DNA of 61,296 nucleotides, counting the filler. It is 10 parts of 10 records of this genome, joined end to end, with 100 filler letters (N's around TTAATTAATTAA, not from the genome) between each part and the next. Parts side by side here need not be neighbours in the genome. Positions count along the whole stretch, not along the records: positions 14,349 to 25,992 come from SRR15195285_557; 9 more parts are not named here. One strand, 5' to 3'. A model generated the notes under the pieces. It saw nothing but the letters and a program-made list of their open reading frames with translations. It was not told where the DNA came from and did no database searches. Numbering within the stretch: the stretch's first letter is position 1; the number at the start of each line of letters is the position of its first letter. This document shows, piece by piece, positions 5,376-57,026 of this stretch. The translations under genes and the position numbers were made by a program.

Positions 5376-5475
5376 NNNNNNNNNNNNNNNNNNNNNNNNN
5401 NNNNNNNNNNNNNNNNNNNTTAATTAATTAANNNNNNNNNNNNNNNNNNNNNNNNNNNNNNNNNNNNNNNNNNNN
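5376..5475. other. Artificial contig linker (44N-TTAATTAATTAA-44N)
   Basis: The same 100-bp spacer, with stops in all six frames, occurs nine times in the window. Confidence 0.99.
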
Positions 5476-10274: not shown

Positions 10275-10374
10275 NNNNNNNNNNNNNNNNNNNNNNNNNN
10301 NNNNNNNNNNNNNNNNNNTTAATTAATTAANNNNNNNNNNNNNNNNNNNNNNNNNNNNNNNNNNNNNNNNNNNN
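10275..10374. other. Artificial contig linker
   Basis: 44N-TTAATTAATTAA-44N. Confidence 0.99.
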
Positions 10375-13300
10375 CGGAGCCAGAGCCGGAGCCGGAGCCG
10401 GAGCTCGAAGATTCCTTTGAGGACGAGCTCGCGCGGTGCCAATTCGACACGTGCACTATCCACGTTGGCGGTCTCGGCGGTGAATTTGAGGACGAAGGCG
10501 CAATTGGCGAAGTGTTCACTAAGTACGGCAGGTTTATACAAGCTACAGTGCGACAGCGGCCCGGCATCAACAAAAGCTGGGCTCTTGTCACATTAGGTGA
10601 CAGACATGCGTGCGAGCGAGCGATAAACGAGACCACAACAGCTGGTGATGTCACCTTGGTTGTGAAACCTGTGAGCATGGAGCAGGCGATGGCGAGTACG
10701 GGGTCGTTTGGGCAGATCTGGCGCGTCGCCAAACAACGATCGGGTGAAAAGGTCGCAGAGATGCTCAAAGAGCACGCAGAAAGTGAGGAGGCAAATCGTT
10801 CAAAGATGAGGAAATTGTCGTCCCCATCCTCCCAGGCGGGGTCTGCCAAATCCGACGACAGTACCTCTCCTCCTGGTTCCACGACATCCAAGCCTAGTCA
10901 AATGACGCGATCGGGGCGTTTATCGAACACCTCCAGCCGCGGTCGTCGCGCTTCCAGTGATTCTCAAGGAGAGGCATCCGTCCGGTCACAGGCGACTACG
11001 AGCGCGCAACTGCTCAGTGTTGAGGAGGCGTTCGACATATATGACGAGAACAAGAACGGGGTGGCAGACATGGACGAGCTTCGTGCGATATTCAAGGCAC
11101 TCGGTCATCACCCGACCGACGAAGAGCTTCTGGAAATTCTGAATGGAGACGCAGAAGCGGAAGTGGGATTGGAGGTGGTGCAGGAAGCAATGCGTAAACG
11201 CGGTCATGGCAGGGAGTCTCCCAGAATCGGATCGCCAGGATGGCAGCGCTCGCGGACAGATAGCCACAAAGAGGCAAACAAGTTCTCTGGCGTTGGAGGA
11301 GGCGCCAAGCTGGACGTGCTACGCCAGCGCACGAAGGCTATAATGCTTGTGAACCGGCTGGGGATGAAAGGTGACGACGACTCCCCGGGCAGTGACGCTG
11401 GGAGCGCGAGAGGAAGTAGGCGCAGCAGCACAGCAAGTTCCCGCGGACTCTCGCGGCTTGAGGAGCAGTACGCTGGCATGGGCGGTAGCGAAGAAACTCG
11501 CGAAGCACTCGCGTTGGCGGAGGATGAGCTTTCTTCGCTGCAAACGATTCTCGATTCGCTTGACACCAACAAAAACACGGATGCAGACGAGTCGACCGCT
11601 GCAGCAGCCCAAGCTAGCTCTCAAAAGGCTCTGGGGCGGTTGCTGTCAGGCAAGATGAATCGAGATCTCCAGAACGCCAGTCCTTCCTCTAAGCGTGGAC
11701 CATCCCCGGATCCGCTGTCTGGAGAGCTTCTAGGTCGTGCAGTTCAGGATCTCTGCGAAGTGAAAGTCTTGCTGTCAGAAGCAGATGGGGACAAGGACAA
11801 TCTAGAAGCGCAGAAAGATGTGCTGGAAGCGCGCAACTACGAGCTTTAGCTGGACAAATCAAATCTCTACGCGACTGTCATCGAGACAAAACTCAACTTG
11901 GCGCAGGCGGAGCTAGAGCGACAGAAGTTGACCGTGAGCCTTAAGCGCGAGCGGCAACACCGTGACTTGCTTGGTCAACGTATTGCTGCCCTGGAGCTTC
12001 GTCTGGCTGCTGAAACAGCCAATCGGAAGGCAGCACCTGGTGCAGCGGATGGAGCTGATGGCGCAGGCGGTGAGCGAACGGGGGGTCCGAAGCAGCGCAG
12101 GAAAGCTGAGGTTGGGCTTCAGATGGATTTCGATGAAGAGGAAGAATTTCAAGCACCAGTCGTCCCCAAGAACGCCAAATCTCGCGAGTTTATCCGGCAG
12201 GCAGTTCGGCACGAGGACCTGTTCGCCCACCTCCAACCGGAACAGTGTAAGATGATTGTCGCAGCCATGGGTCGGGCTGAGTACTCTGAGGGGGATACTG
12301 TCATCAAGAAAGATGACGTGTCGAGTTACTTTTATGTCCTGGAAGCCGGACAGTGCACGGTGGAAACTAGTGACGGCGATGTCTTCGTACTCGCGCATGG
12401 CTCATCATTTGGAGAGTCCAGCATGTTGCACCAGACAATATCAACGAGAACCATTCGGGCGAGGACAAAGTGTCTGCTGTGGCGCCTGGAGCGGACAGTC
12501 TACCTTGGGATTGTTGTGCGCACGACTGCGCAAAGGAAGGCCAAGTACGAAAAACTCTTGGGCCGCGTCAGCCTGTTGCGGTCGATCACACCGATCGAAC
12601 GTGCCTTGGTGGCTGATTCACTCAAGTCTCACCACGTCAGGGCAGACGAAGTTGTCATGCGTATCGGCGATAAGGGGGAATACTTCTTCATCGTCGTCAA
12701 GGGTACGTTGGTTGTGATGGACAGTGTCGGCCGCCAACTGGCGCAGCGGGTGGAAGGCGAGTATTTTGGAGAAAAGGCGCTGCTCACAGATGAACCTCGG
12801 TCGGCCACCATCGCTGCTGTCACAGACTGCGAGCTTGCCCGCATCGACAAAAAGACATTCGTGCGGTTGATCGGTGCTGTCAAGGACCTAAACTTCCGCG
12901 AATATGCTGAAGGAGAGGAGGGTAAGGCTGACCGTCTGATACTCGAACAGGCTCAGCATACCCGGCAGAAGGTTGCAACACTGCCCGCATCTACTGAGAT
13001 TCGTAAACAGGACCAGAAGCTCGTCGCGTTCGAGACAGTGGGCCAGCTAGGACGGGGTGCATTCGGAGTGGTCTGCTTGGTGCGTTATCGCTTGAACAAC
13101 AAGTGCTATGCCGTCAAGGCAATCAACAAGCGCATGATCGTGCAGAAGAAGCACGTCACGAAGGTTATCAGCGAACGCGAGAACCTTGTCCTGTGCTCCT
13201 GTGACCCAGCAGCATCCAAGTGGACAGTGCCACTGCACGCTGCTTTCCAAGACGAGCGGAATCTTTACCTGATGATGGACTTCATGCCCGGCGGCGAACT

Positions 13301-14248
13301 CTTCTCGCTAATGCCGCTCAAGCTGCGTGAAGTTCGATTGGTCGCAGCACAAGTTGCCTTGGCGTTAATCGCGATTCACAACCTCGGGGTGATCCACCGT
13401 GATCTCAAACCTGAAAATCTTTTGATCAATCGCGAGGGGCACGTCAAGATCGGTGACTTCGGGTTGTCCAAGCGTGTGGTTGACCGCACCTTCACCTTCT
13501 GTGGCACGCCGGACTACATGGCACCGGAGGTGATCCAGAACCTTGGCCACAACAAAGCTGTTGACTACTGGGCGCTTGGCTGCCTTATCTACGAGATGTT
13601 TGTTGGCGACGCTCCGTTCTACCGACCCGGTGCCGAGAGCAAGGTTTTCGAGAGGATTCTCCGTCCCAAGGTGCGTTTGGTCAAACGAACCCTTAAGAAG
13701 CTCACCTCACCTTGGCGCTGTTCATCCTCCTCGTCCTCTGCTGTTCTGGGCGGCCTGTTTTGGCCCGATCCGGCTTTTGTTGCTGCACATGTGGGGTGTG
13801 CCTGGCCGACCGCTTTGACTTGTCGTGCGGCGCTCCATCTGATTTAATGTCGTTCTGGTGCTCACTGCTGTTGCAACTGTCCTGCTGCTGTTGTCCTTGG
13901 GTGATATCGTGCCTGCTACCGCCTCTTGCATGCTACCTCTTGCCGCGCCTGTTGCTCGTTTCCGTGTCTGTTGCTCGTTTCTGCGTCCATTGCGTATTTC
14001 CGCGTCCACCGTGCCTACATATGTGGGTTGCAAACTGGTATTGTGCACGGATACAGAACGTGAGAACACTCGACAGACCTCTGTCTTGGTCATCTGCTAG
14101 CCTCGGCCCTTGCTTTCCTGCGCCTGGTCGCATCGTGGGTCGGTCGACACGACTGAGATGGCTTCGCATGTTTCGGGTGTTTCGCAGATCTCGTGCCCGC
14201 CGGCGGTGCCGAAGCTGGCAGCGAATCTGATCGGCAGGTTGTTGGAAA
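10375..14248 (+). CDS. cGMP-dependent-kinase-like multidomain protein: RRM-like, EF-hand, coiled coil, two cNMP-binding domains and an AGC Ser/Thr kinase; truncated at both ends; one in-frame TAG at 11847-11849
   Basis: One reading frame runs from 10377 to 13670. Motifs: TIHVGGL..SWALVTL (RRM-like), DENKNGVADMDE (EF-hand), FGEKALL..PRSATI (cNMP), GRGAFG, YAVK, HRDLKPEN, DFG and TFCGTPDYMAPE. An intron at 13671-14187 is followed by ISCPPAVPKLAANLIGRLLE. Confidence 0.88.
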
Positions 14249-14348
14249 NNNNNNNNNNNNNNNNNNNNNNNNNNNNNNNNNNNNNNNNNNNNTTAATTAA
14301 TTAANNNNNNNNNNNNNNNNNNNNNNNNNNNNNNNNNNNNNNNNNNNN
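14249..14348. other. Artificial contig linker
   Basis: 44N-TTAATTAATTAA-44N. Confidence 0.99.
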
Positions 14349-14658
14349 TTTTAATCTGGGCACTGTGCTTGGTACTACGCTCAGTCATCGCCGGTGTTTT
14401 AACAGGGACGTGCGGCGGGACGACCAACGCGCCGATCCTACATTGCCTTCGTGGCGTCCTGGACACTTCGTGGATCTCCCGAGCTGCGCCCTGGCTGTCC
14501 AGCACATGGCTGCGTGAAGGAGGTGAAGGAGGTGGGCCACAGTCAGTCAGCAGCAGCAGCAGCAGCAGTAGATCAGCAGCTGTGCATGTACAAGTGAGGC
14601 TCATACAGCTCCATAATAACATCCCATCCGCAGCAGCACCTTCAGTGAGGCTGGGTGT

Positions 14659-15426
14659 ATGGTGGCGCGGCAAATGCTCAAGCTGGTCACCTTCGACCCA
14701 ACTGGCACTCTGTTCCGTCCAGCAATGGAAGTTGGTGTGGCGTACCTCGCGGTGGTCGCCAAACATCAGCAGCGCCTTGGTGGGCCGCCACTCCCCAGCC
14801 CTTGCGAAGTCTCCAAGGCTTTCCACGACTCCTACCGGCTACAGATGCTCAAGAACCCGTGCTTCGGCCACGACGACGGGCTGTCCAATCGAGACTGGTG
14901 GGAGGCAACTGTCCGGTCTACCTTTCTGCACACAGGCATGCTGCCGTATTTTTACGACTCATTCGATGAGATCTATGGTGAGGCTTTCGACGGAAGCAAG
15001 GAGGGCGGTTTCTGGGCACGGAACAGTGGAGCTGTGGAGTGCCTGGCCTCACTGGCAGGCCGCGGGGCGACCATCGGTGTCATTTCCAATAGCGATGTGC
15101 GCTACCATGACATCCTGCACAATCTTGGCCTACGCCCGCACCTCGACTTTGTGCACGTTTCCGGTGAAACTGGGTGGGCCAAGCCGGATCCGATGGCCTT
15201 CGGAGAAGCGCTGCTGGCTGCAGGACGGGTGCGTGGGGAGACAGTGGCTGCCGAGCATGCTGTTCACGTAGGCGTGTCGGCATCGAATGATGTACTTGGA
15301 GCGCTGGACGCGGGCTGGTCAGCGGTCTACTGCGGGGACGCGAACATGGAAATCGATGAGGTGTTGTCCCTACCGCGCGACCAGATTGCGAGGCTTGCGG
15401 ACAAGCTATCTCCGAGGCTGAGCTAA
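14659..15426 (+). CDS. HDHD3: HAD-superfamily hydrolase, HDHD3/REG-2-like
   Basis: LVTFDPTGTLF (motif I), GVISNSD (II), KPDP (III) and HVGVSASNDVLGA (IV), plus the cap motif P.FG...GL....WW. Confidence 0.8.
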   Translation: MVARQMLKLVTFDPTGTLFRPAMEVGVAYLAVVAKHQQRLGGPPLPSPCEVSKAFHDSYRLQMLKNPCFGHDDGLSNRDWWEATVRSTFLHTGMLPYFYDSFDEIYGEAFDGSKEGGFWARNSGAVECLASLAGRGATIGVISNSDVRYHDILHNLGLRPHLDFVHVSGETGWAKPDPMAFGEALLAAGRVRGETVAAEHAVHVGVSASNDVLGALDAGWSAVYCGDANMEIDEVLSLPRDQIARLADKLSPRLS

Positions 15427-15570
15427 AGGAGTTTTCCCAACAGCTCTGGGTTGGTAGCCCAATGAAGAGAATTGCTTATTCTGTGACCTCACCCGGTGAA
15501 AGTACCGCCTACCCGACGCGTCTTGCATGGTTACCACAAGTCATGACACAGCCAAGCGCGTTCTAGCAAA

Positions 15571-18500
15571 TCAGGAGATTGTTGTCTTCCGCGTCATGAA
15601 CGCTTTGCGCTCCTTCCAATGGAGTGTGTCCTGCACTTCTTGCTCTGACGCCAATCTGTCGTGATTTTGCTCAAACTTTTGCTTCATGGCCGTGGCTGTG
15701 AGCAAGCTTTGCAGTCCAGAGAGCGTCTCTCCACGCTTTGGCTTACGATACGGCTTGCCAAAACGATCCTCCCACATCTCTGAGAGAAGCAGCCAACATT
15801 GTCCCCCGAGCTGGCTCGCCGAAGCCTCCGACGCTGGAGAGCCGACGCACTCCCACACCATGCGTGCGCGCTCAATCAGTGGTTCACCAGGCTGTGGATG
15901 CAGTGGGTACGGCTCAAGGTCATCTGCGTCTTGAGGGCGTCGGCCGAGACGCTGTAGATATGGACCGTCATCTCCGACTGCCGGAAACGCAGCTGGCGGA
16001 CAGATGCAGTCAATCCTGCCAGCCTCGCTCAGCATCTCCTGCAGCTGTTCTCGATTGTCGTCGACAACTGCCTGAAACATTATTCGTGTTGCTAAGTACT
16101 CAGCACAGTGCATCTTTCGATCTTTGTAAGCAGCCTCATAAAGGCTCAAGCCATGATGGTTTCGGGCGTTTGCCAGCCGTTCATGGCCTGGGGGAATTGG
16201 CGACCTGTCTAGCAGAACAGCGTCCGCGGGTGCGACTGGCTGCGAAATGAGCAATGCCAGAATTGCTGTATCGTCTGCTTGGATTGCACCAAACAGTGTA
16301 GTGGCGGTGGCTTCATCTACGAGCTTAGTCAGGTCATCGACTGCTATCGTTCGCGAGACTCTCTCACCGTCCAGTAGAACCTCAGCAATTTCTCGCCCAA
16401 GATGATCCACTGTCCCGGTCAGCTGAACGATTCTGCCAAGTTTGCCAACCAGTGCGTGTTCTCCCGTGAGGTCCGCCGCCCTCCTAATCTTGATCCGATC
16501 TCTTGGGTTGAACCATTCAACCAAGCCTTCAGCACAACGCAACAACGTTGTGACATGGTCACTGCCACGGAGTGACTGTTCGTGGTTCTGCAGGATGAGT
16601 TCGATCACGCTACCCGATGGGTCCATACTCAAGGTATCTTGACTAATCGAATCAATCGCTAACTTGTCAATCTGATACGTCAACAAAGCCTCATTGCATA
16701 GTTCAGAGAATGACAAGCCATCAAGGTGCATTCTGAGCGTATCCAACGGGTCTACCGATCGCAGATTCTCACTGGAGCTGGAAGCATCCATGAGTGTCAC
16801 CCAGCCCTTTCCGTCATGCAACTTCAAGCGGACAGCCCCTTCGTCAGTACACTGGTACTTCTGCACCTCTACTAGTGCGCCAGGTTTCAGCTTGCCGCAT
16901 CGCTGAGATTTGGCATACACCTTAGATTGCGCTGCTTCCGCTTCATAATACCTCAGGCTCTTCGTGATCCAAAGTGGTGAAGCCGCACAGACTTTAAATG
17001 GATAAGACGTGGCATCGTTAGACAAGTATTCCAGTTGGACCGTTCCGTCAGGCCTGGTAAGATCTAGATAGACATGCTCCCTGGAAAAGAGCGCGCCATT
17101 CGTTTCGATTCCGACAACACCCGACAAAAGCTGTGCACGAGCTGTAGCTACCACCGACTCTCCTACAGGCAAATGCCCGGCCGGCAGGGGGGCTGATTCT
17201 GGACTCATCTCGGTACGAAGTTCTGCAACTTGAAGCACCTTGTAGCGGTACACGTCCTGACGCTTTTTCTTGCGCATCATCGTCCGTTGCTCCTGCCTCT
17301 CCAGCCCTGTGATCCCTCCATTTGCAGACGAGCCATCTTCCTGCAAGATGTCCACCAATTCTTGTTCTCCATCAGAGTCTTGCATTTCCGACAACGGGTT
17401 AGAGAACTTCACCGGCGACTGTCCTTCCTCGTCAAATATCCCCGCTGGCTGTTTCATGGTCTTCCGCTTTTCCTTCTTTTTCTTCTTTTTCTTCTTTTTC
17501 TTAGTACGCGTTTTTTTGCCATTATGCTCGTGCTCCATGGCAGTCGGATTGGCAGTCGGATCGATGGCAGTTGGATCCATTGCCACTTCGTGCTCCGACA
17601 ACGGCGATTGCCGTTCATCGTCAAATGAGCCCGATCCTGATGCTCCAGGCAGCACTGGGCTACCAGTCCGTCTGCTTGTCTCGACATCAAAGGAGACGCT
17701 TTCTTCCGACTCAAACGAACTGGTTTCAGCAGCGTCTTCAAATATGTTCTCTATGGGGTTAACAAACTTGGTGGTAGTCAGATCGACAGCATTTTCGTCA
17801 TGCCTCTGTGCCTTCTTCTTCCGTTTCCACCACTGCCTTCTAGACGGCTTCTTGGTTTCTACAACAGTCTCCGATGCTTGTGCATTAGTGAGCTCTTCCA
17901 ATTTGATGCCGACGGCTTCCGCAGACATCTCTACAAATTCGACGTAGTTGACGATTTGAGCAACTTCGTCTTGGGCACCATCTATTTGAACTGCCGAAAG
18001 AAGTGCAGCGAACTGCACTGGCGAAAAAGACAATCCGAAACTCCGTATAACTGAACGAAAGTCTTCTGCAGAAATGGTGCCAACGACCTCGGGGTCGAAT
18101 GCACGGAACTCAGCTATCAGCTCGTCCTCGGTCATGGAATTCAACTTGTTCAGTTCATAGATAATGATGTCCACCGCAACTTCGCTTTGTATCTGTGGGA
18201 CTGCTTTGATCTGTGGGGCTGGTTTAAAATCGTCATCTTCCGACTCGATAGTGTTGTCATCGGTGAAACGAATGATGCCGAGTCGGCGTTTGTTTTGCCG
18301 TTTATCAACGACAGTTTGTAGCCTGTCAAACGCATCTGCCACAACGTGCTCTGGAGTGATGCGATTGACATTGATGACGGAGTCAAGCGTCAAGAAAGCT
18401 GCCACCCCAACAGCGCAGTCCCAAGCATGCTTGGAGGCTGAGAGGCCGACCGGGTTGCCTTCTTTCAAGTCAAACTTCTCGTCTGCTTCGGGGTCCGCTT

Positions 18501-21500
18501 GTCCTTGTGTGATGTCTTTGCTTTGCAGTTTGTCTACAGTTTCGGTTAACGTGAAGTCGGAGCCTCCTCGTTTCTGTACCATCCGTGCTTTTTTCGTAGC
18601 AGCCGCTCGTCGCTTACACTCACACCATGGGTTCGGCAGTGTACAGCTATTGCATCTTCCTTGACGACCTTCTTCATAGTCTATTCCCTCTACCAGGCGT
18701 GCTTTCCGGTTTCCAGTGGTTCTGTCCCAAAACGTACCTGGCAAGGCGCGTGCACCGGATTCGTCTACCGCTCCTCTGGAGATGAACGATCGTGCATATA
18801 CTTGCAATACTCTGGCTGCATGATTCTCGTGCGCTTGTATTAGCAATGCACTCTTGCCCACTTCATCCGCAAGGGTCAGACATGAGCTGCTGAACCTGAC
18901 ATGGCAGAGAGCCAGCAAAAGGTCGAAAAACGGCACTCGAATATCCGCTCTGCCAACTTCACAGTCCAACACATCGTCCCGCGTGTATGTCCCAGGTGCC
19001 TTGCCTTCAGGATGGAGCTCGAACAGGATTCGGTTGAAGAAGTGAGGATCAGCCTGTGACATCATCGAAAATGTACCCATACCAGGCTGTCGGATGAACC
19101 AGCGTACTCGTGCTAGACTGATATCGTCATGAATGCTGTGCAGAGATCCCTTTGGTCCAGCCGACCTAACCCAGCGGCGCTTGAAAAGCTCAATATCCAT
19201 ATCAGACACAGCCATGTCTTCTGAGCCCATGAGGTCAAAGTTGTCAAGGAGCAGTGCAATGAACAGATTGGTCAACAGGAGGTTCGCAGTGAACCAAAAG
19301 CAGGCAAAAAAGACCAGTACATGAGAGCCTTTCATGCGCGCGCATTCTTCATTGATACGCATCATGGACTGCCCAGTACACAGCTGGAACAGTACTATCA
19401 TTGCTGAGGGCACTGTTTCGAAGTTGGCATCAGCAGTGATGTCTCGACCACGGGGAACATCTCCACACAGCTCATGTGCGTAGCAGCCGAAGATGAAGAA
19501 CATCACCAGCATGATGCTGCACAGGTTTACCACTTGCGGTAACGCTAACGTGACCATAAAATGAATTTTTTGAATCGCATGGACGCGCTTCACAACGGAG
19601 ACCAATCGTAGAGCCCGGACGAATTCCAGAGCTTTCAGCTGTGGCCAACCCAGACCCGTAATTTGGTGTAGTGTTGTTATCCAGAGTGAGACTAATACGA
19701 CAGCATCTACTTTGAAGTCGCGCGCGTAAATGTCAGCTCCATAACCACAGATCGTGCAGCCAGCCTCTACGGTGAACACAACCAGCACGTACTGATCAAG
19801 CATACGCAGAACCTCTGCCATCATGCCTGATGGGTCCATCGACAGAGTAGCTTGCTGCCCAATCATCGACACGATGCCTGATAATATCGTCAAATCTACT
19901 ACCAGTATAAATTTGCGCGACTGTACGACGGAATAACAAAAGTATGCTGCCCCGCCAAACTTTTCCTTTTCGGGCGGAGGTATCAGTTCCATCCGTAGAG
20001 ACTCCATGACAAACATACTCATGAACTGCCAATTGCGTTGCTCAGTGGTCATCAGAGAGCTCCCAGATGCTTGTGCAAAGAATTCACACAGCATACCTGT
20101 AAACAAGTTAGTGAGCATGAGGCTGTTCCACACGATGAAACTAGCGAAGAAACAAAACGACCCAATCGCGCTGAAGTCTTTGCTTGGTGGTTGATCCACG
20201 TACGTTGTGTCAATAGTCCAGAACCACATCTCAGTCCAACCCTGAAGTGTCCATACGGAGAATAGAGAATTTGATGCTTCCACAATGTTGTCCCAATGAA
20301 AAGGTCGATTTTCCCAAGACAGACCGGCTGCCTCGCACTCATTTCGATTCAGCAGCTCTGCAGCACTGCACCTCCATAAAAGCCCCTTGAAAAGGTTCAT
20401 CCCAATTATTCCGAACGTCAAGAATGAGCCGGCCATCAGAACGAGTGCAGTCCATACTGCGGTCAGCGAAGCCAAGAATGACTTCACCATGAGTCGAAAT
20501 CTGCGAACCATATAGAGAATGCGAACGGTTTGCAGTGGCAGAACAAAGCGTGCATACGGGACACCCATGGCTGTTGAGATCTGCGTTGCGAGCACTGCCA
20601 GCTCAAATGCTGTGCTCGGGCTGGGCCATTCGTCTTCATCCGGCCCACCTAAGAAGCGGTAGGCTACGATTTTGACTAACGCCTCCGCACTTAATATGCA
20701 CAGCACGAAACCACGAATCAACAGCGCAAATTGTGACTGGCTTTCGCTTGAGTTTCTCTGGTCTCCTCTGAGCGCAGTGTCCACTGCGCTTAGCAACACC
20801 ACCACCAGCATACAACCACGGAATGCTCGAGTGCCTGCAATGTACTTCCAAAACGTACGTTTTTTCCATCCACCGCCGCTGCATGCTGGTCTGACACCAA
20901 CCGCACTCGCATTCTGAAATCGTTGTCGCCTCACTCCCTCATTCGGAGAACATCGGCACAGTAGGTCTGCGCCCGGGCATTTTCTAAGCGTTCTTTTAAC
21001 CGATCGCATGGGCGTAGTATCCATGGTGCGCCGGGTAACCCTCTGAGTGAGTCTAGCGCCTCGCATGAATTCGTCCAACGTTCTGTTCTTCAGAACATTC
21101 ACGGTCCCAGTCTCTGAGAGCATCGATTCAACTCCACGTATGCCGCTTTGCAGTGTATTGACCCATTCCTTCGGGCCCGGTGAATCTTGAGCCATCGCCT
21201 GGATGTATAGCCCAACCTGAATATCGCGTTTTTGCTCGTCATCTAGTTCGAAATTCTCCATGAAGATGGCCACGAACAGGTTTCCTAGGACGAAGGTACA
21301 GCAGAATGCAATAAATGCGAAGTAGTAAACCGCAACATCTCCAGCGCAGTCCATCTGCTGGAACATTAGGTCTGTCCAGCCGTCCCCTGTCATGACTTGG
21401 AACGAGACTAAGAATGCTTGCCAGAAAGTATCGAAATTCGGCTGGTGACGTGGTCTCTCCAGCGCCACTACGCCGCTAGAGCAACCGTGAAAGAGGTGCA

Positions 21501-24500
21501 TACCAGCAATTGACGCCAGCGTCAAAAGGAAGAAAATGAAAATGACCAGTGAGATAATTGCATCAATACCTGAGAATGCCTTGCTCGCCATCTCCTTTAC
21601 GGATTTTGAGCGGAAAATGAACTTAGCAACCCGTGCTGCCCGCACAAGTTTGAAGATTCTGAGCATCCGAAGGACTGTACTTCCTCTTGTGTCGGACTGC
21701 TGCTTGCGCATCAGCAGGATCCAATAGCTGGCAAGGCTTGCTGACACAATCATGAAATCTAGGCGGTTCAGCATATATCGGAAGTACTGACGAAACCCCA
21801 GAGACTGGAGCTTGACCAATAGCTCGAATGTGTACCATCCAGTGAATGCCGCCTCACCGATATCGAGGATCAATTTAACGTCCGGTTCTGGTCGATGGTG
21901 GTCGCATGCCAAGAACACGATGTTAACCAGCACTATGGCCGTTGTCGTGACGTCGAAGGCATCGCTTCCCATTATCCGCCGGCAACGTCTTGTCAACGGT
22001 GGATTCAAAATCTGTAAGATATGGCGACCAGAATCGTCTGCTCTGCCGCGTGCGCCGGCGCGACGCCCATCGTCGAGAAACCTTTCAACAAGTGTCTTCT
22101 TCACGCCACCTGTGGCATCAAGATTGCGTGATGCTTTGCGCACCTTGATGTAGGAGTACGCGAGCCCTGCTACAAAGAGGTTGACTGTGAACAGACCAAT
22201 CCCCACCACAGCCAGGGCAAATGTTGGCCATGCAAAGGCCGATGTCACAACAAAATTCCGTCGAAATCGATTGCATACTATGTTCCAGTTGTCAAATGTG
22301 ATGATGGCACTTGTCGTCACTAGAGAGTCTGCAAAACTGTCGAAGCCAAAATACCCGTCCGAAGGCGATGTCCGGTTGGGCTCCCAAACGAAGCATGCAG
22401 ATGAATCAGGGAACTGGATTGTGCAGTCAAATGCAGCAGGGCATTCACCCAGTATTTCGCCGCAGTCTTTGCATCCATCGAGCGCACCACATGTGACGTC
22501 AGCAACACCTTGAAACAGTTGAAAGCCCACGACGTACAGGAGGAGGAACAAAAACAGCAGCAACAGCAGTACGGCCCCGATCATAATCCGATTGCCGATG
22601 ATTGAATTCAAGATGTTTCGCACATGTACAAAGAATCGCAGTGCACGGAAAGATCGAAGCATTGCCAAAGCAAACCCTATCTTGTCTGATACGTTGAAGA
22701 AGAGAGACCCCAGGTACAGAGCCCAGACCGCCGTGATAATGACGAAATCGAACACATCCCAGCCGCTACTCAAGAAGGCCGTCTCTCCTCGTACTAGGCC
22801 GCTGACAACAATTCGCATCAGCATCTCGGCCGTGAAAATCACCATGATGAAAAAATTGACTACTGCCAGGGCAGACGTGGACTCCTGGCCAGGTGTTTGC
22901 GCCGCCATCAACCCAACATTGAAAAATATTATCAATACTAAGACTCGATCGGTGACTGGGTTTTGGATCAAATGCTGGCACCATTTACGAAAGGGCGAAT
23001 CGCTCGGGAAGAGGCCAAGGGAGAGCCCTGTCAACTCGGATTTCTGTGCGAATGCAGCTGCTAGCAGGTCATTGAGGTACTCCTCCGCGGCACCGGCGCC
23101 TTCATCTGCTGCCTCAACGACCGAGAGGATTGGCCCACTGGCCTTTGAGGTGAACGCCGATAGCTTCAGTTTGCTTCGCAAGATTCCACTTTGAGTAGGG
23201 CTTGGTGTACCACACCACCACTGTGCCCACTCAGCGAAGTCGACTTTGCCATCGCCTGAAGGATCCATCTCTCTCAGGGCCAGGAGAACATCGTACGCGT
23301 CCGCGTCAACGTGTAAGTCGTTGACCAGCTGCATCAGCTCCTTGTGACCCACAAAGCCGGTCCCAAGTGGGTCTACGCAGTCAAAAAGGGAGCGTAGTGA
23401 CCGCTTGCCATTGGAGCTACCCTTGTCGACGGCGTAAACCATCGCGCCTTTTGCCGCGTGAATCAGCCTAGTCATGCGAATTGCGCGGTGGATGTTCATG
23501 GTAACCGGATCGCGAGTCTCAGCTTTATACCACGCAAAGAACTCCTCGAGCGATACTTCACCCGATCGGTCCCGATCTAGGCCAATCCATGTGGAGTAAA
23601 ACTCCTGGGCATTTAATGACAGGCCGATGTACCCCAGCAACCTTTTGAAGTCAGCACGATCGAGAAAACCATCACCGTCTAAATCCAACTCATCAAACAG
23701 CACCGCGCCTGCATCCAACAAAACTAGGGGTGAGACAGTAACTATTTGCGGCGACGCTGGTAGCAAACTTACTCGCTTGAACCTCCTTTTTCTGGTGCTC
23801 AATACGTTTCTTGAGCAATTCGCTTGCATTTGCGCCCTCTGTACTACCCACTGCCCATTGCACAAAACCATCAAAATTGACCTCGTTCCCGAATGCATCC
23901 ATGTCGATCATCATCCCCTCCAGCTCAACGGCGCCGAGTGCTCTGCCGCTTTCGCTAGCAATACCTAAGCTCTGCAAGAGCTCGCCTAATTCGCGTACGT
24001 CCAAACTACCGCTCCCGTCTGTGTCAGCCAGCGCAAATATGGCCTTCAGCTGCTCGCGAGCCATCAAGCTTTCCGTGAGGCTATCTCCCCCGGCTCCTGC
24101 AAATGGTACCATTCGACGGACCGCGGCCAGCTTGCCGTTGTCTTGCCACTTTGCATGATAAGTTACCTTCGCAGGCTTGAACTCGATTAGATTTTTCCGA
24201 TACTCCAACTGGGCGGCTGGTATCTCTATCTGCTTCTGCATGCTGGCTGTGGCCGACGCGACTGCACTCGTTCGCTGTATGAAGTCCGTAGCCCGGCTAA
24301 GCCTTACTGCATGAGCTTTCCTCGTCATTGCATCCACGATACTCATACTCTGGTCACACAAAAGCTCGAGCTGCTTGTTCGATGCAGAGAACACGATCAC
24401 CACTGCTGCATGGTCGCCTCGCCACATTACGATCTCATACCAAGAGCAAGTCCAAAGCTCAGCGCCAGTAATTCGGTCCAGCAGACCGATGCCCTCTTTG

Positions 24501-25030
24501 TCAATTCGAAACATGACAACCGTGGGATGTTCTGGCAGGTGCGTCTGCTCGACTGTGAAGAGTCTCAACGTCTCCAGGTCTTCTGCTTCACCGTCTTGAC
24601 TCTGGAACATATCTTGGCTTTCTATTTCATCGTCGCTGTCAGACCTCGAGTGTAAATCACTGGATGTCATGCCCCAAAGGTCGAGTTTTGATTTGAGCGC
24701 TTTATCGAGCTTGGCTGTGATGCTATGCAGCATGAGCACAATCTTCTTCGCGTTGCGGCGCCCGCGAGCTGTTAGGAGCACCCGCTTCATGTTGTTCTGC
24801 AGCAAGATTGTGACAGATGAGTTGGACTGTGTCCACATGACGAGGTTTGAGTATGCATATTCAGCCACAGGGGTGGCTTCGTTGAGCAGCACCATTGCCT
24901 TCGGCCTCAAGTGTAGGATGACATCGCCCGGGCAGAAGCCGAGGTGAGTCTGGCGCACAAAGAAGATGCCACCGTTCACTGGCTTATCGTCCTCAGGTTG
25001 TTCGGTACCACCTAGCAACGGCGTGTCCAT
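15571..25030 (-). CDS. Four-domain voltage-gated cation channel alpha subunit (Cav/Nav-like fold, ~3131 aa) with N-terminal PH-like repeats and EF-hands; exons 25030-23773 and 23708-15571
   Basis: Four 6-TM repeats carry S4 motifs, pore loops (TFDNW, TGDGW, TLQGW, TGQSM) and S6 motifs (NLFVA, NLFVAIFMENF, NLFTG, NLFIALLLDNF). An IQ-like AARVLQVYARSF follows. The two ORFs join through a 64-nt phase-1 intron (gtaagt..tgcag). Confidence 0.93.
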
Positions 25031-25479
25031 CGCGGAGATGGTGCGGAGCTCGCTAGCACCGAGTGCGGCTTACGTGTCTGGCGAGTTCCGGAATCCGCAG
25101 CCCTCACACCGCACCTGCATGACCTTCACTGCTGCGTCCAACCGTGTTTTATAAAGGCTGCTGCAGAGCGCGACTCAGCGACGCGCTGTCGGCCCACGTG
25201 CCGGTCTCCAGTACACCGTTCCGTCTCTTCCGCAGAACGCCATACTACGTCCTTGACGCCCCAGAGCTAACCCATGTGCTCAGGACAATTAACCAAATGC
25301 TCGAGACTGCACACTGCAGTGACATCGACTGACGGTGCGCGTCCGCGGCGCGTGCGGGCACCCGCGGGGCAGAATCGTGTGCTCAGCAGTGCGTGTCACT
25401 GTCAGCTTGACCGTCAAGGCCTCCAGCCTTGAGCAAAGCCAACACGCATCAACCAACATGGAACCCAAGTGCGCTTTCT

Positions 25480-25992
25480 ACTCTAGCTAGTACTATACAG
25501 TACACGTACTAGTACGGTACGTGTACGGTACAGTACTGCCTGAAGGTAGTACCGTACTACTGTACTGTACTACATGTACTACTAGATCTAGAATGGCTCA
25601 CAGGTACCGTACTATGTAGCTACTAGTATAGTAGAGTACAGCTTGAAGCTGTACTACTATAATAGTATGGTACAGTACAACTGTATTGACTACTACAGTA
25701 TACCATCAACAGTAGGAACCCTACTAGCTACAATAGTACACGCAGAGCAGTGGTACGTGCATTCAATTCATCGTATTCACGGTAGCAAACAGTACTTTAT
25801 TCATAATGCTACTAGTAGCTATTATAGTACATATTACCCTCCTGCCGCGTGTCTTGTCTTGTCCACAGTACTATTCATAGTACGTGTACTAGTACATGTA
25901 TTTAGAGGAGCAGTGACCCTTCTTGAGCAGTGACCCTTTGTGAGCAACTTGAGTACTAGTACAGTATAACCAGAGAACTCACTGAGAAATAC
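25480..25992. repeat. AT-rich low-complexity tract dense in GTAC/CTAG/AGTACT words, upstream of the channel gene
   Basis: Composition shifts abruptly, with many short palindromic words (tagtacta, cagtactg, gtacgtac) and no credible ORF. Confidence 0.7.
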
Positions 25993-26092
25993 NNNNNNNN
26001 NNNNNNNNNNNNNNNNNNNNNNNNNNNNNNNNNNNNTTAATTAATTAANNNNNNNNNNNNNNNNNNNNNNNNNNNNNNNNNNNNNNNNNNNN
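25993..26092. other. Artificial contig linker
   Basis: 44N-TTAATTAATTAA-44N. Confidence 0.99.
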
Positions 26093-36561: not shown

Positions 36562-36661
36562 NNNNNNNNNNNNNNNNNNNNNNNNNNNNNNNNNNNNNNN
36601 NNNNNTTAATTAATTAANNNNNNNNNNNNNNNNNNNNNNNNNNNNNNNNNNNNNNNNNNNN
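36562..36661. other. Artificial contig linker
   Basis: 44N-TTAATTAATTAA-44N. Confidence 0.99.
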
Positions 36662-44566: not shown

Positions 44567-44666
44567 NNNNNNNNNNNNNNNNNNNNNNNNNNNNNNNNNN
44601 NNNNNNNNNNTTAATTAATTAANNNNNNNNNNNNNNNNNNNNNNNNNNNNNNNNNNNNNNNNNNNN
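44567..44666. other. Artificial contig linker
   Basis: 44N-TTAATTAATTAA-44N. Confidence 0.99.
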
Positions 44667-47847: not shown

Positions 47848-47947
47848 NNNNNNNNNNNNNNNNNNNNNNNNNNNNNNNNNNNNNNNNNNNNTTAATTAAT
47901 TAANNNNNNNNNNNNNNNNNNNNNNNNNNNNNNNNNNNNNNNNNNNN
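47848..47947. other. Artificial contig linker
   Basis: 44N-TTAATTAATTAA-44N. Confidence 0.99.
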
Positions 47948-48241: not shown

Positions 48242-50888
48242 ATGCCGGCTGAGAGGGCAGTCAGCGACCACGAGGTCGCCGAGCAGCTAGTGCCTGAAAG
48301 TGCTGATGAGGATGAGGATGACTATGGTCAGGACGGTTTTGATGGGGTAGGTGAGGTGCAGGATGCACCGACGATGGCCTTGATGCCGGCTCCAGTTCTC
48401 ACCGGCCTCCCGCTCATGCTGTCATCAGTTCCGCTGCTGAAGAGTCTTGACCGCACAGATTTGGAGCACGTGGCATCTGTGCTGCGACCAGAGCACTTCG
48501 AGGAAGGCGTCGAAGTGATCATACAAGCCGATATCGGCGAAACGATGTACTTTGTGGAGGACGGCGCTGCAGTTGCCGAGATCGATGGCACTGTGGTGAT
48601 GCGGTACGGCCGAGGCGACTTCTTCGGCGAACTGGCGCTGGTGACGCAAACGACACGGAAGGCAACCGTGCGTGCCGTTGGATCGACAGGTCTGCGCTGC
48701 CTGTCGCTCGCGCGGGACGATTTCGACCTGCCCTATTTTTCTGACGCAATGATCTGGGAGAAAATATTCACAAGTAGTCCAGCATCACGATACGAGACAC
48801 CAGCAGCGGCACCTGCAGCGGCAGCTCCAGCAGCAGTGGACGACGATTCGCCGCGTGACCATGTGTTGTCGCCGTCGACTAGACATGTGACTCGCACGAT
48901 AAGTGCCACCTCCGACAGCTTCGCGCGGCAGATGGAGGCCGCAGGCTTGGCCACGCCTGCAGACGCCACTTCAAGCGATTCTTCGTCCGACGCCGACGGA
49001 GAAGCACGGCTCTACCAGGCGGTGAGGAGGGCAATACTTCGTGAACACGCCGACGTACGTGCACATGTGACCCACCGATTCGCAGACTGTTGGCATCTAG
49101 ACTGATTGGATGCCCGTCTGCTCGCAGCTGCATTCCGCTAGAGTAGGCACGCTGCTTGCCGGAGAGGTGACAACTGCCCAGCCAGCATCTGACGGCGGGC
49201 TGAGAATACACTGCCATGGACGTGGATGGGCGTCGGTAGCGGCAGATGATGGAACGCCGTTGCTATTGCCACTCTCGCATCAGTTGGCAAAGAGCATGCC
49301 GATCTTTGGGCGATATTATTCTGCAATTGTCCGCGTTCCAATTCGTGACAGTCCAGCAGTGTCGTCAGCGTCCCTTGGGGCGGATGCAGCCATCTTGCCT
49401 GGTGAATGCGTGCGCATTGACCGCGTGGTGTTGAACGAACTGGCATTGCCGAAGATTGCTTTACTTCATGAAGCCGAATACGAGGCCGACGCAAGCGCTG
49501 GGGCCGAGGTTGTGTCATCGACTGCTACGTGGGGCTGGGCAAGCTTTTGGTCGATCTCTGACGCCAGCCCGCTCTTTGTGATAGAGGATGAGACGCCAGA
49601 GCCAACGCGCGTGTGGGGCATTGGAGGAACCAGCAGCTGGGCGGGCACAAGTTGTCGGCCGCCTGCATGTAGACCGTCATCGCCACCGCAGTTGGACGGT
49701 AGCGGTGGTCCCACGAGCGTAGATGCCGACGGTCAGATTATCTTTGGCTACCACGAGCCGCGGACGGTGACACGTGCAGCACTGGCGATGCAAGCCGTCG
49801 GCAAGTCGGCTACAAAAGAGCAGATGAAATTGAAAATGGCGATCGATGCCTCGGCCGAAATTCTGCAGCTGTTACCATCAGTGAGCCACAACCAGAGCGG
49901 TACTACAACGCTGGATGGTACTGCACCCGAAACGGTAGCGACTCACGGCAGCCCGTGGCGAGAACAAAGTTTCATAGCGAACCCAGATCGACATTCTGAT
50001 TTGGTAGATGAGCTGGAACGACCTTGCACAGTGTCATTCGTGCGAGGGCATGTCAGCATGGACGATCTAAGCTACGTCCGTCAGACTTTTGCCAAGCCGT
50101 CAAACCTCCTAGCAACATTTGGCAGTCACGACGACAGCAACAGCAGCGATGGCAGCGAGAATATTGACAGTGCTCTCGACAGAGGAGAGTCTAGCTCTCC
50201 TAGCGACGCCATTGCTGGCTTTAGGCCAGACATAGAAGGAGGAGCAGAGAGTGAGTACAGCAGAGTTGGCGGGAGTGGATATAGCATGTCCAACTGCGCG
50301 CTCCACTCGCCATCTTCCTGGGTGCATATTGACGTTAGCGGCGCGATTAGACACGATGAGAACTGGGCGAATCTAGGTGACAGCCGCCAAAATAGACTAG
50401 ACACACAAGGTGATCCAGCTTCCACAGAGCGAACCGAGCGTGAGGGTGAACAGGCTGCGGCGCGAGGCCGGAGGGCATTGTCGGTGGCTCTCCCTCCTCC
50501 TCCGAACGCGTCTGCCCGCGCACTACCAGGCAGGCCAGGATTGTCATCGTTTTCGTCGACGGGCGGCTGGAGCATGTACGGGTTCGACCCAGAAGTGGAG
50601 GCGTTCCTCGAACCGCTTGAGCAGGCGCTACCAAAATTGCGCAAAGCTTGCCAGATTGCACGAATGGACGATACGAAGCTTGCGGAGCTGGAGGGGTTGC
50701 GGCGACATTGGTGCTTGGACGAGGGTGATGCCGACGTGCAGGACGCAGCATCACACCCGTTTCTACGCTGGCTGCAGAGACTTGGCGTGGGCGGGATCGA
50801 TCAGACCTTGGCGGTATGCGCTGCGCTGCGGCAGGTGTATCAGGAGCGCTGGGAACGGCAAGCAGCAGAAAACGAGGTAGCTGGTTAG
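48242..50888 (+). CDS. Cyclic-nucleotide-binding domain protein with SH3b-like repeats; exons 48242-49054 and 49128-50888
   Basis: The cNMP domain reads LSSVPLLKSL...IIQADIGETMYFVEDG...GDFFGELALV..TRKATVRA. A phase-0 73-nt intron (gtacgt..cgcag) joins YQAVRRAILREHAD to LHSARVGTLLAGE...RGWASV..DG. Confidence 0.75.
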
Positions 50889-53502: not shown

Positions 53503-53602
53503 NNNNNNNNNNNNNNNNNNNNNNNNNNNNNNNNNNNNNNNNNNNNTTAATTAATTAANNNNNNNNNNNNNNNNNNNNNNNNNNNNNNNNNNNNNNNNNN
53601 NN
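53503..53602. other. Artificial contig linker
   Basis: 44N-TTAATTAATTAA-44N. Confidence 0.99.
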
Positions 53603-56926: not shown

Positions 56927-57026
56927 NNNNNNNNNNNNNNNNNNNNNNNNNNNNNNNNNNNNNNNNNNNNTTAATTAATTAANNNNNNNNNNNNNNNNNN
57001 NNNNNNNNNNNNNNNNNNNNNNNNNN
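56927..57026. other. Artificial contig linker
   Basis: 44N-TTAATTAATTAA-44N. Confidence 0.99.

Follow-up and report, generated by a model that had tools for sequence, protein, structure and literature searches.

The window analysed here, a stretch of 61,296 nucleotides (nt), consists of ten contigs and carries on one of them the gene of a predicted four-domain cation channel, whose selectivity filter reads Asp-Asp-Gln-Gln (DDQQ) from repeat I to repeat IV (DI-DIV). Nine copies of one spacer (N44-TTAATTAATTAA-N44) connect the contigs; it has a stop in each of the six reading frames and belongs to a type that serves for joining contigs. Only positions 14349-25992 are the true neighbourhood of the channel gene, and gene order across the spacers is not real synteny. 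The main open reading frame (ORF) lies at 15571..23898 on the minus strand and encodes 2775 amino acids (aa; protein P0001). Upstream of it, a second ORF (P0070, 23693..25030, minus strand, 445 aa) is read in another frame. Residues 23-417 of P0070 align to residues 21-431 of P0003, which form the N-terminus of that homologous channel (34% identity, E 8e-72). Removal of a 64-nt stretch with the ends of a canonical intron joins '...QKKEVQA' via a split Ser codon to 'AVLFDELDLDGDG...', mirroring the homologue. As the frame change is bridged exactly by this canonical intron, the main ORF is not the whole gene. We thus infer that the upstream ORF is the first exon of a channel gene with two exons, and its spliced product of about 3131 aa would be composed of 419 + 1 + 2711 = 3131 residues. 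The first-pass annotation had described the ORF as intact over some 8 kilobases; it is indeed open over 2775 codons, but this understates the gene, whose first exon lies upstream.

Contigs of three RNA-library runs and of one DNA run were compared with positions 14349-25992. Those of the DNA run (X1) span 14618-21457 and 21731-25107 gap-free, which argues that the frame change is not an error of one assembly alone; X1 may, however, be the source sample. Constraint on the gene was assessed from positions at which contigs of other runs differ from the window by a single base; there are at least 40 of these, and the counts given here refer to the 40 listed. The two predicted exons together hold 31 of the 40, with 15 synonymous and 16 non-synonymous changes, while in the channel core (codons 300-1600) 11 synonymous changes stand against 4 non-synonymous ones. 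Thus, purifying selection acts on the channel core, and less strongly on the tails. It could be argued that the locus is an artefact, either a decaying pseudogene or a chimeric assembly, since the window is an artificial concatenation of contigs and the two ORFs of the gene are in different frames. However, the gene lies wholly inside one contig (14349-25992) and is covered by the gap-free DNA contigs of another run (maybe the source sample) over the stretches named above, its 2775 codons are open, and an orthologue of the same length and 72% identity exists (P0002). Synonymous changes dominate in the core, and the frame change is bridged exactly by the 64-nt intron. An artefact is therefore extremely improbable, and this explanation is already close to refuted.

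The channel part of P0001 is recognised by the Pfam family Ion_trans (PF00520) in four stretches (E 1.9e-121). Among channels of solved structure, the closest by sequence are Cav3.2 (7.3e-86) and Cav1.2 (4e-74), followed by Nav1.7 (6e-56) and NALCN (5e-37). An AlphaFold2 model of residues 430-1600, a span that begins after S1-S4 of DI (mean predicted local distance difference test, pLDDT, 74.6; predicted TM-score, pTM, 0.77), has a helix-turn-helix at all four P-loops. In Foldseek comparisons this model resembles Nav1.7, Cav2.2, Cav1.2, Cav3.2 and NALCN about equally (probability 1.00, TMq 0.63-0.71, which are global scores). Profile matches and the predicted structure together show P0001 to have the makeup of a four-domain cation channel with the fold of the Cav/Nav superfamily. 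The putative voltage sensors differ between the repeats: S4 of DI has three charges in register and one more, with one helical turn of the Cav/Nav rows missing, and S4 of DIII and of DIV carry three to four charges each. Coordinates of all features are collected in Table 1.

Table 1. Predicted features of the channel gene and the artificial joints of the window; positions count along the window
Feature	Positions	Strand	Residues	Remarks
Spacers between contigs	5376-5475, 10275-10374, 14249-14348, 25993-26092, 36562-36661, 44567-44666, 47848-47947, 53503-53602, 56927-57026			nine joints
Artificial contig linker	14249..14348	none		lower edge of the channel gene's contig
Artificial contig linker	25993..26092	none		upper edge of the channel gene's contig
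Exon 1 (predicted)	23773..25030	-		419 codons + 1 base; two ~90-aa repeats, then EF-hand pair 1; from P0003 alignment and frame arithmetic
Spliceosomal intron (predicted)	23709..23772	-		64 nt, GTAAGT...CAG; from sequence and frame restoration
Exon 2 (predicted)	15571..23708	-		stop at 15571-15573; EF-hands, four channel repeats, C-terminal EF-like/IQ region, ~1050-aa tail
EF-hand pair 1 (predicted)	23855..24058	-	P0070 aa 325-392	Pfam EF-hand_7, E 1.8e-07, 31.8 bits against a cut-off of 30
EF-hand pair 2 (predicted)	23524..23700	-	P0001 aa 67-125	Pfam EF-hand_7, E 4.2e-21
EF-hand pair 3 (predicted)	23215..23391	-	P0001 about aa 170-228	loops D176-E187 and D212-E223, read from the translation
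Repeat I	22129..22947	-	about aa 318-590	boundaries approximate, read from sequence; S4 R415, R418, R421, R427
DI filter residue	22291..22293	-	D536 (TFDNW)	codon GAC; model residue 107, between helices 93-104 and 109-116
Repeat II	21229..21960	-	aa 647-890	best Pfam stretch; S4 with six R/K at every third position
DII filter residue	21382..21384	-	D839 (TGDGW)	codon GAC; model residue 410, between helices 396-407 and 412-423
Repeat III	20074..20781	-	about aa 1040-1275	boundaries approximate
DIII filter residue	20242..20244	-	Q1219 (TLQGW)	codon CAG; model residue 790, between helices 776-787 and 792-800
DIII-DIV linker motif S-L-M-T	20047..20058	-	aa 1281-1284	aligned to L-F-M-T of an arthropod Nav1-type row
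Repeat IV	19234..19896	-	about aa 1335-1555	boundaries approximate
DIV filter residue	19369..19371	-	Q1510 (TGQSM)	codon CAG; model residue 1081, between helices 1067-1078 and 1083-1094
IQ-like motif AARVLQVYARSF	18784..18819	-	aa 1694-1705	likeness to the IQ pattern judged by eye

Placement of the four filter residues was approached in three ways. Each of the P-loop pentapeptides (TFDNW, TGDGW, TLQGW and TGQSM) occurs once in P0001. In HMMER alignments to solved channels, D536 pairs with the DI Glu of Cav1.2 ('iitfDnw' over 'citmEgw'), D839 and Q1219 pair with the DII Glu and the DIII Asp of Cav3.2, and Q1510 pairs both with the DIV Glu of Cav2.2 and with the DIV Asp of Cav3.1. A 28-row MAFFT alignment places the four residues in the same columns as the EEEE of insect Cav1 and fungal Cch1 rows. 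In the AlphaFold2 model each of them stands three residues after the end of the P1 helix and two before the start of the P2 helix, in blocks with a pLDDT of 81-89. As far as alignment and modelled secondary structure go, D536, D839, Q1219 and Q1510 are thereby confirmed as the residues of the EEEE/EEDD selectivity locus, and the P-loop alignment puts all four on the EEEE/EEDD positions of solved Cav channels. The residues and codons are exactly those read by the first-pass annotation, which had also pointed out that DIV is devoid of its usually conserved Trp; two positions after the DIV filter residue (+2) P0001 has Met (M1512) instead. None of the four filter codons differs in the rows listed for DNA and RNA-library contigs of other runs. 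Characterised four-domain channels have the filters EEEE (Cav1/2), EEDD (Cav3), DEKA (Nav1), DEEA (Nav2) or EEKE/EEEE (NALCN). The earlier claim that DDQQ matches no characterised class stands, as the filter of P0001 differs from EEEE, from EEDD, from DEKA/DEEA and from the filter of Cch1.

The regions flanking and linking the repeats add features that bear on gating. Three predicted EF-hand pairs are fused N-terminal to the channel, one in exon 1 and two in P0001, where Pfam finds two EF-hand_7 stretches (75.5 bits against a cut-off of 30). By eye, four of the loops have Asp1, Gly6 and Glu12, and one has Asp at position 12; the loop D176-E187, with Leu at position 3, looks degenerate. Exon 1 also holds two repeats of about 90 residues (P0070 aa 20-260, '...QTHLGFCP...' and '...QTHLPEHP...') which are conserved in P0003 and have no match to any Pfam family; they make up an N-terminal module of the channel family. 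The linker between DIII and DIV is short, and 'GSSLMTTEQRNW' in P0001 aligns with 'GSLFMTEDQKKY' of an arthropod Nav1-type row. Homologues have ILMT, MLMT or VLMT at the place of SLMT, and T1284 and Q1287 of the linker are invariant in the family. A gate made of a hydrophobic triplet plus Thr is regarded as ancestral in the available text of Pozdnyakov et al. (PMC5824947). After S6 of DIV, a Cav/Nav-like continuation ('LDNFDLMGSEDMAVSDMDIELFKRRW') leads to the IQ-like motif, for which the family consensus is HAARxIQVxxRAF.

A word-indexed search returned 68 proteins, and 11 of them are clear family members: P0002 (72% identity, 2776 aa), P0003-P0006 (43-44%), P0007 and P0008 (40%), P0009-P0011 (34-36%, about 3500 aa, with a U-box) and P0012 (28%). 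Aligned with P0001, this family of 12 rows has the filters DDQQ (5), DEQQ (1), DDQT (2), DDAQ (3) and DDQH (1). An exhaustive search of 50%-identity representatives gave 7082 matches at E <= 0.001, from which the best 150 were taken as relatives. The four filter columns were then read in an aligned set of 198 proteins of at least 1300 aa, with EEEE in 91 rows, EDEE in 14, EEDD in 9, NEEE in 8, DDQQ in 7, DEEQ in 6, and many singletons. In a FastTree tree of these 198 rows, P0001 falls into a 19-row clade (support 99) within a 37-row superclade (support 100), which is separate from the Cav1, Cav3, Nav and Cch1 rows. A quick IQ-TREE run on 52 chosen rows, with the filter columns masked, gives a split of 25 against 27 rows (Shimodaira-Hasegawa approximate likelihood-ratio test, SH-aLRT, 98) and a 12-row 'DD' clade with support 99. 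Midpoint rooting was used for both trees, and neither comes from a careful search; P0102 (DDVQ) lies outside the superclade in the first and inside in the second, with a long-branch warning both times. Homologue search and phylogeny, one of the checks that the first-pass annotation had proposed, thus show orthologues that keep the DDQQ pattern and form a separate clade in two trees.

At the filter positions of the 19-row clade, all 18 filled rows have D in DI; DII has D in 17 rows and E in one, DIII has Q in 12, A in 3 and R in 2, and DIV has Q in 12, T in 2, and H, N, E or M in one row each. In the 161 rows outside the superclade the first three positions are mostly E, and DIV is Q in only 2. 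The acidic positions of DI and DII are thus fixed, while the neutral positions of DIII and DIV drift among small or polar residues. At +2 of DIV the clade has L (9 rows), M (6) or F (3) and never W, whereas W is present in 150 of the 161 outside rows, so the clade as a whole is marked by the absence of the DIV Trp. EF-hands occur in 12 of the 22 superclade rows scanned, and in many of the remaining rows the gene call may lack its N-terminus. According to precomputed lists, EF-hand families are present in 10 of the 11 family members and in 2 of the 57 other proteins, one of which (P0032) belongs to the superclade. A second DDQQ channel, P0036 (TLDKW/TLDEW/TLQNW/TGQDW), retains the DIV Trp and sits among EEDD and EEEE rows in both trees; its filter is an apparent case of convergence, judged from alignment and tree position.

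The host may be narrowed down through these relatives. Those with a name carry the EukProt labels COSAG06 (P0002), SAG22 (P0007), SAG31 (P0008, P0012 and P0225) and SAG11 (P0082). According to the accessible text of a later study (10.1101/2025.05.06.652364), SAG22, SAG31, SAG11 and COSAG06 are assemblies that Schön et al. 2021 obtained from single picozoan cells, and the original picozoan paper, in its accessible part, uses the same assembly naming (PMC8599508). Other close relatives are environmental sequences, and the sister DEEQ group has no named organism among its nearest matches. Near-identical DNA comes from marine or seawater metagenomes in 23 of the 23 public runs listed, to which the four runs compared with the contig above belong. 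It seems, then, that the host is probably a picozoan or a close ally, an uncultured marine protist. The SAG31 assembly contains at least three superclade paralogues, namely P0008 (DDQT), P0012 (DDQH) and P0225 (found as a relative of the DEEQ query P0083), which points to a lineage-specific expansion.

Taking these features together, we favour with moderate confidence the reading that P0001 is a cation channel which is voltage-gated and inactivates, carries EF-hands as well as an IQ-like motif, and lacks high-affinity Ca2+ selection. Depolarisation would move the S4 segments with their Arg and Lys residues and open the pore, whose filter would be lined by two adjacent carboxylates (DI and DII) and two amides (DIII and DIV). 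With only two carboxylates and two amides, a micromolar Ca2+ site of the EEEE kind would not form. Monovalent cations would then pass even in millimolar Ca2+, along with some divalent flux, and in seawater the channel would carry a mixed current, mainly of inward Na+ with some Ca2+. SLMT in the linker between DIII and DIV may close the channel quickly, like the IFM-type gate of Nav, and the EF-hands and IQ-like motif may provide Ca2+ feedback on gating. Voltage gating and inactivation are proposed here because of the S4 charges and the SLMT motif. The proposed weak selectivity of the DDQQ ring comes from mutagenesis of Cav1.2. In the part of that study available to us, Ca2+ block is weakened 10-50-fold by a single substitution at the EEEE locus, high-affinity Ca2+ binding survives none of the double substitutions while double-Ala mutants still pass Ba2+, and in QQQQ, AAAA and DDDD high-affinity binding is abolished with Li+ still permeant (PMC2233694). 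By analogy, weak Ca2+ selectivity may reasonably be inferred for P0001.

Several points weigh against this reading. Its claim about permeation is an analogy with mutants of a different scaffold; two carboxylates and two Gln carbonyls could still coordinate Ca2+, and the acids at +4 of the filter, D843 in DII and E1223 in DIII, might add to a Ca2+ site. Placement of the filter itself comes from sequence alignment and from the secondary structure of a model. The S4 segments of DI and DIII have fewer in-register charges than those of canonical channels, and the first residue of the inactivation triplet is a polar Ser in P0001, in place of the I, M or V of homologues. With regard to the two-exon structure, no splice joints are reported in the contigs of the three RNA-library runs over 14349-25992, and an RNA-library contig (X8 record 32) spans 23685-24094 unspliced. 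Among the X15 contigs, one ends at 23635 and the next begins at 23785, with no joint between them. As the libraries may hold DNA, their contigs neither confirm splicing nor prove transcription. Finally, the picozoan assignment derives from the labels of relatives at no more than 72% identity, and not from the window.

Some of these points may also be read in favour of a channel that prefers Ca2+. In that case the Asp carboxylates, the Gln carbonyls and the vestibule acids D843 and E1223 would form a Ca2+ site of lower affinity, for which the roughly 10 mM Ca2+ of seawater would suffice, and the EF-hands would sense the channel's own influx. The acidic residues at DI and DII in 18 of 18 rows of the clade are as expected if cation binding matters, and the +4 residues of DII and DIII are acids, which the Cav1 rows also have there. 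The EF-hand pairs, three in number, and the IQ-like motif suggest that the function revolves around Ca2+, and the best matches among solved structures are Cav3 and Cav1. However, in Cav1.2 double substitutions, and even DDDD, lost high-affinity binding (PMC2233694, accessible part), and the tolerance of DIII for Ala (3 rows) and Arg (2 rows) is hard to fit with a conserved Ca2+ coordination shell. We therefore consider a Ca2+-preferring channel rather unlikely.

It may also be asked whether P0001 is Na+-selective without a Lys in its filter, in which case the clade would represent an independent origin of Na+-based excitability. The net filter charge of -2 and the asymmetric ring are nearer to Nav than to Cav, the DIII-DIV linker aligns with the Nav inactivation motif, and the DIII-DIV halves match Nav1.7 strongly. 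Two sister rows within the 19-row clade, P0071 and P0074, have the filter DDRQ, with a positive DIII residue at the position of the Nav1 lysine, and their Arg recalls that lysine. Nothing in the sequence of P0001, however, shows a substitute for the DIII Lys, and Nav channels which are devoid of it lose the discrimination between Na+ and K+ and admit Ca2+. Na+ selectivity thus seems improbable to us.

A large part of the protein lies outside the pore, about 1750 of the roughly 3131 residues being external to the channel core, and it is possible to imagine that these long N- and C-terminal extensions do the signalling. P0001 would then be a voltage or Ca2+ sensor or a scaffold that conducts poorly or not at all, or a NALCN-like leak channel in need of partners. 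Consistent with this, U-box, adenylate kinase or ATP:guanido phosphotransferase domains are present in relatives, DIV has lost the Trp by which the filter is normally braced, and S4 of DI and DIII is charge-poor. On the other hand, the P-loops, S6 segments and filter acids are conserved and under constraint, and the match to NALCN is much weaker than that to Cav/Nav (5e-37 vs 7e-86). For these reasons a sensor, scaffold or leak channel appears quite improbable. As regards the extra domains in the superclade, the adenylate kinase was seen in P0098 and, in the precomputed list, in P0229, and the ATP:guanido phosphotransferase in P0157. Adenylate and phosphagen kinases are typical energy-buffering enzymes of flagella, and the presence of such domains in superclade members hints at a ciliary location.

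The other contigs of the window contain ordinary eukaryotic genes, e.g., for an aldolase, a cGMP-kinase-like protein and an inositol phosphatase. A giant virus was considered as the origin of the DNA because of the dense, intron-poor ORFs and the regular blocks of N, and was rejected, as the blocks are linkers with stops in six frames and the ORFs are ordinary eukaryotic genes. On one of these contigs, an EF-hand ORF (10512-11849, plus strand) is followed 48 nt later by an ORF at 11898-13847 (plus strand) which has two cyclic nucleotide (cNMP)-binding domains and a protein kinase domain, like a cGMP-dependent kinase; the two may be exons of one gene. Another cNMP-binding ORF (48242-49105, plus strand) is directly followed by an ORF of 592 aa (49110-50888, plus strand) without a Pfam match, and the two may likewise be parts of one gene, separated by a short intron or by a change of frame.

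Filter rings are the main sequence handle for predicting conduction of the Cav/Nav type, and the story of Na+ versus Ca2+ excitability is built on few motifs (EEEE, EEDD, DEKA, DEEA and EEKE). A conserved, natural DDQQ ring without one bracing Trp is a natural experiment on the smallest number of carboxylates that will do for a four-domain pore. Moreover, a little-known lineage, studied so far only by single-cell genomes, has an expanded channel family with predicted built-in Ca2+ sensors, and the channel offers a specific candidate for how flagellar behaviour is controlled electrically in organisms that are not yet culturable. A wider proposal, which we regard as speculative and doubtful, is that Picozoa and allied uncultured marine flagellates hold a lineage-specific, diversified superclade in which a D-(D/E)-x-Q ring replaces EEEE, the DIV Trp is absent and a multi-EF-hand sensor is fused to the channel, in some cases together with an adenylate or phosphagen kinase. 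In function, such a superclade would amount to a new class of channels that are voltage-gated, conduct Na+ or do not select, and are gated directly by Ca2+ through EF-hands of their own. If true, this would be a further independent eukaryotic route to fast Na+-based excitability, which possibly drives the abrupt, jump-type swimming of these cells. Since only one short intron is predicted in the gene, it is directly synthesisable and testable.

How far this amounts to something new depends on what has been described in protists. Pozdnyakov et al. (2018) analysed 277 sequences and found 36 well-supported clades, many of them lineage-specific; they report 'a great variety' of filter motifs in protist four-domain channels and name D/D/K/D(G), A/G/K/E, S/S/K/E, D/K/T/D and filters containing Arg or His (PMC5824947, accessible text). 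Like P0001, these are uncharacterised four-domain channels with non-canonical filters and S4 charges; they keep a Nav-like inactivation motif and IQ motifs, to which SLMT and the IQ-like motif of P0001 may correspond. The text of that paper, as distinct from its Figure 3 and supplementary motif tables, which lay outside the comparison, mentions neither D/D/Q/Q nor glutamine, EF-hand fusions or Picozoa. In the accessible part of PMC12412391 glutamine, Picozoa and EF-hand are absent and 'selectivity filter' is confined to the reference list, and the preprint gives general filter background only. A full-text search of the literature yielded no paper pairing DDQQ with 'selectivity filter', the slash form not being covered. 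The suggestion of the first-pass annotation that this is an undescribed channel class can thus be kept for the clade and its filter, which are distinct and apparently undescribed, but not for the general phenomenon, as protist clades with varied filters were already known (PMC5824947, text only). In short, diversity of protist filters is not new, while the DDQQ clade and its filter apparently are.

In comparison with characterised channels, P0001 is most like Cav3 and Cav1 in its four repeats and predicted fold, its P-loops of the TxExW type, the acidic DI and DII residues and the acidic +4 positions in DII and DIII. It is unlike them in having DDQQ instead of EEDD or EEEE, in the loss of the DIV Trp, and in its three predicted N-terminal EF-hand pairs, and identity is only about 20-22%. 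Cav1/2 and P0001 stand on opposite sides of the main split, supported at 98-100%, in both trees, and the EEDD rows of Cav3 form a separate clade (support 100). PF16905 and PF08763, which are typical of Cav1/2 and were found in animal rows, had no match in the Pfam scan of P0001. With Nav1 and Nav2 it shares an asymmetric filter that starts with a DI Asp and a short DIII-DIV linker, in which SLMT, with its polar first residue, aligns to LFMT. Its proximal C-terminus also resembles theirs, as it sets out in an EF-like manner and carries an IQ-like motif. In contrast to them, it has no DIII Lys or Glu and no DIV Ala, and the Nav rows (P0044, P0194 and P0197) form a clade of their own far from P0001 in both trees. 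Cch1 rows (NEEE, EEEE) likewise form a separate clade in both, and NALCN, of which the trees contain no rows, is a weak match by sequence (5e-37 vs 7.3e-86 for Cav3.2). A functional analogue may be found among the mutants of the Cav1.2 EEEE locus, that is, EEEE-type pores in which at least two carboxylates have been neutralised. Those mutants, however, are engineered and belong to an animal channel, whereas the neutral residues of P0001 are natural and conserved and come together with the loss of the DIV Trp.

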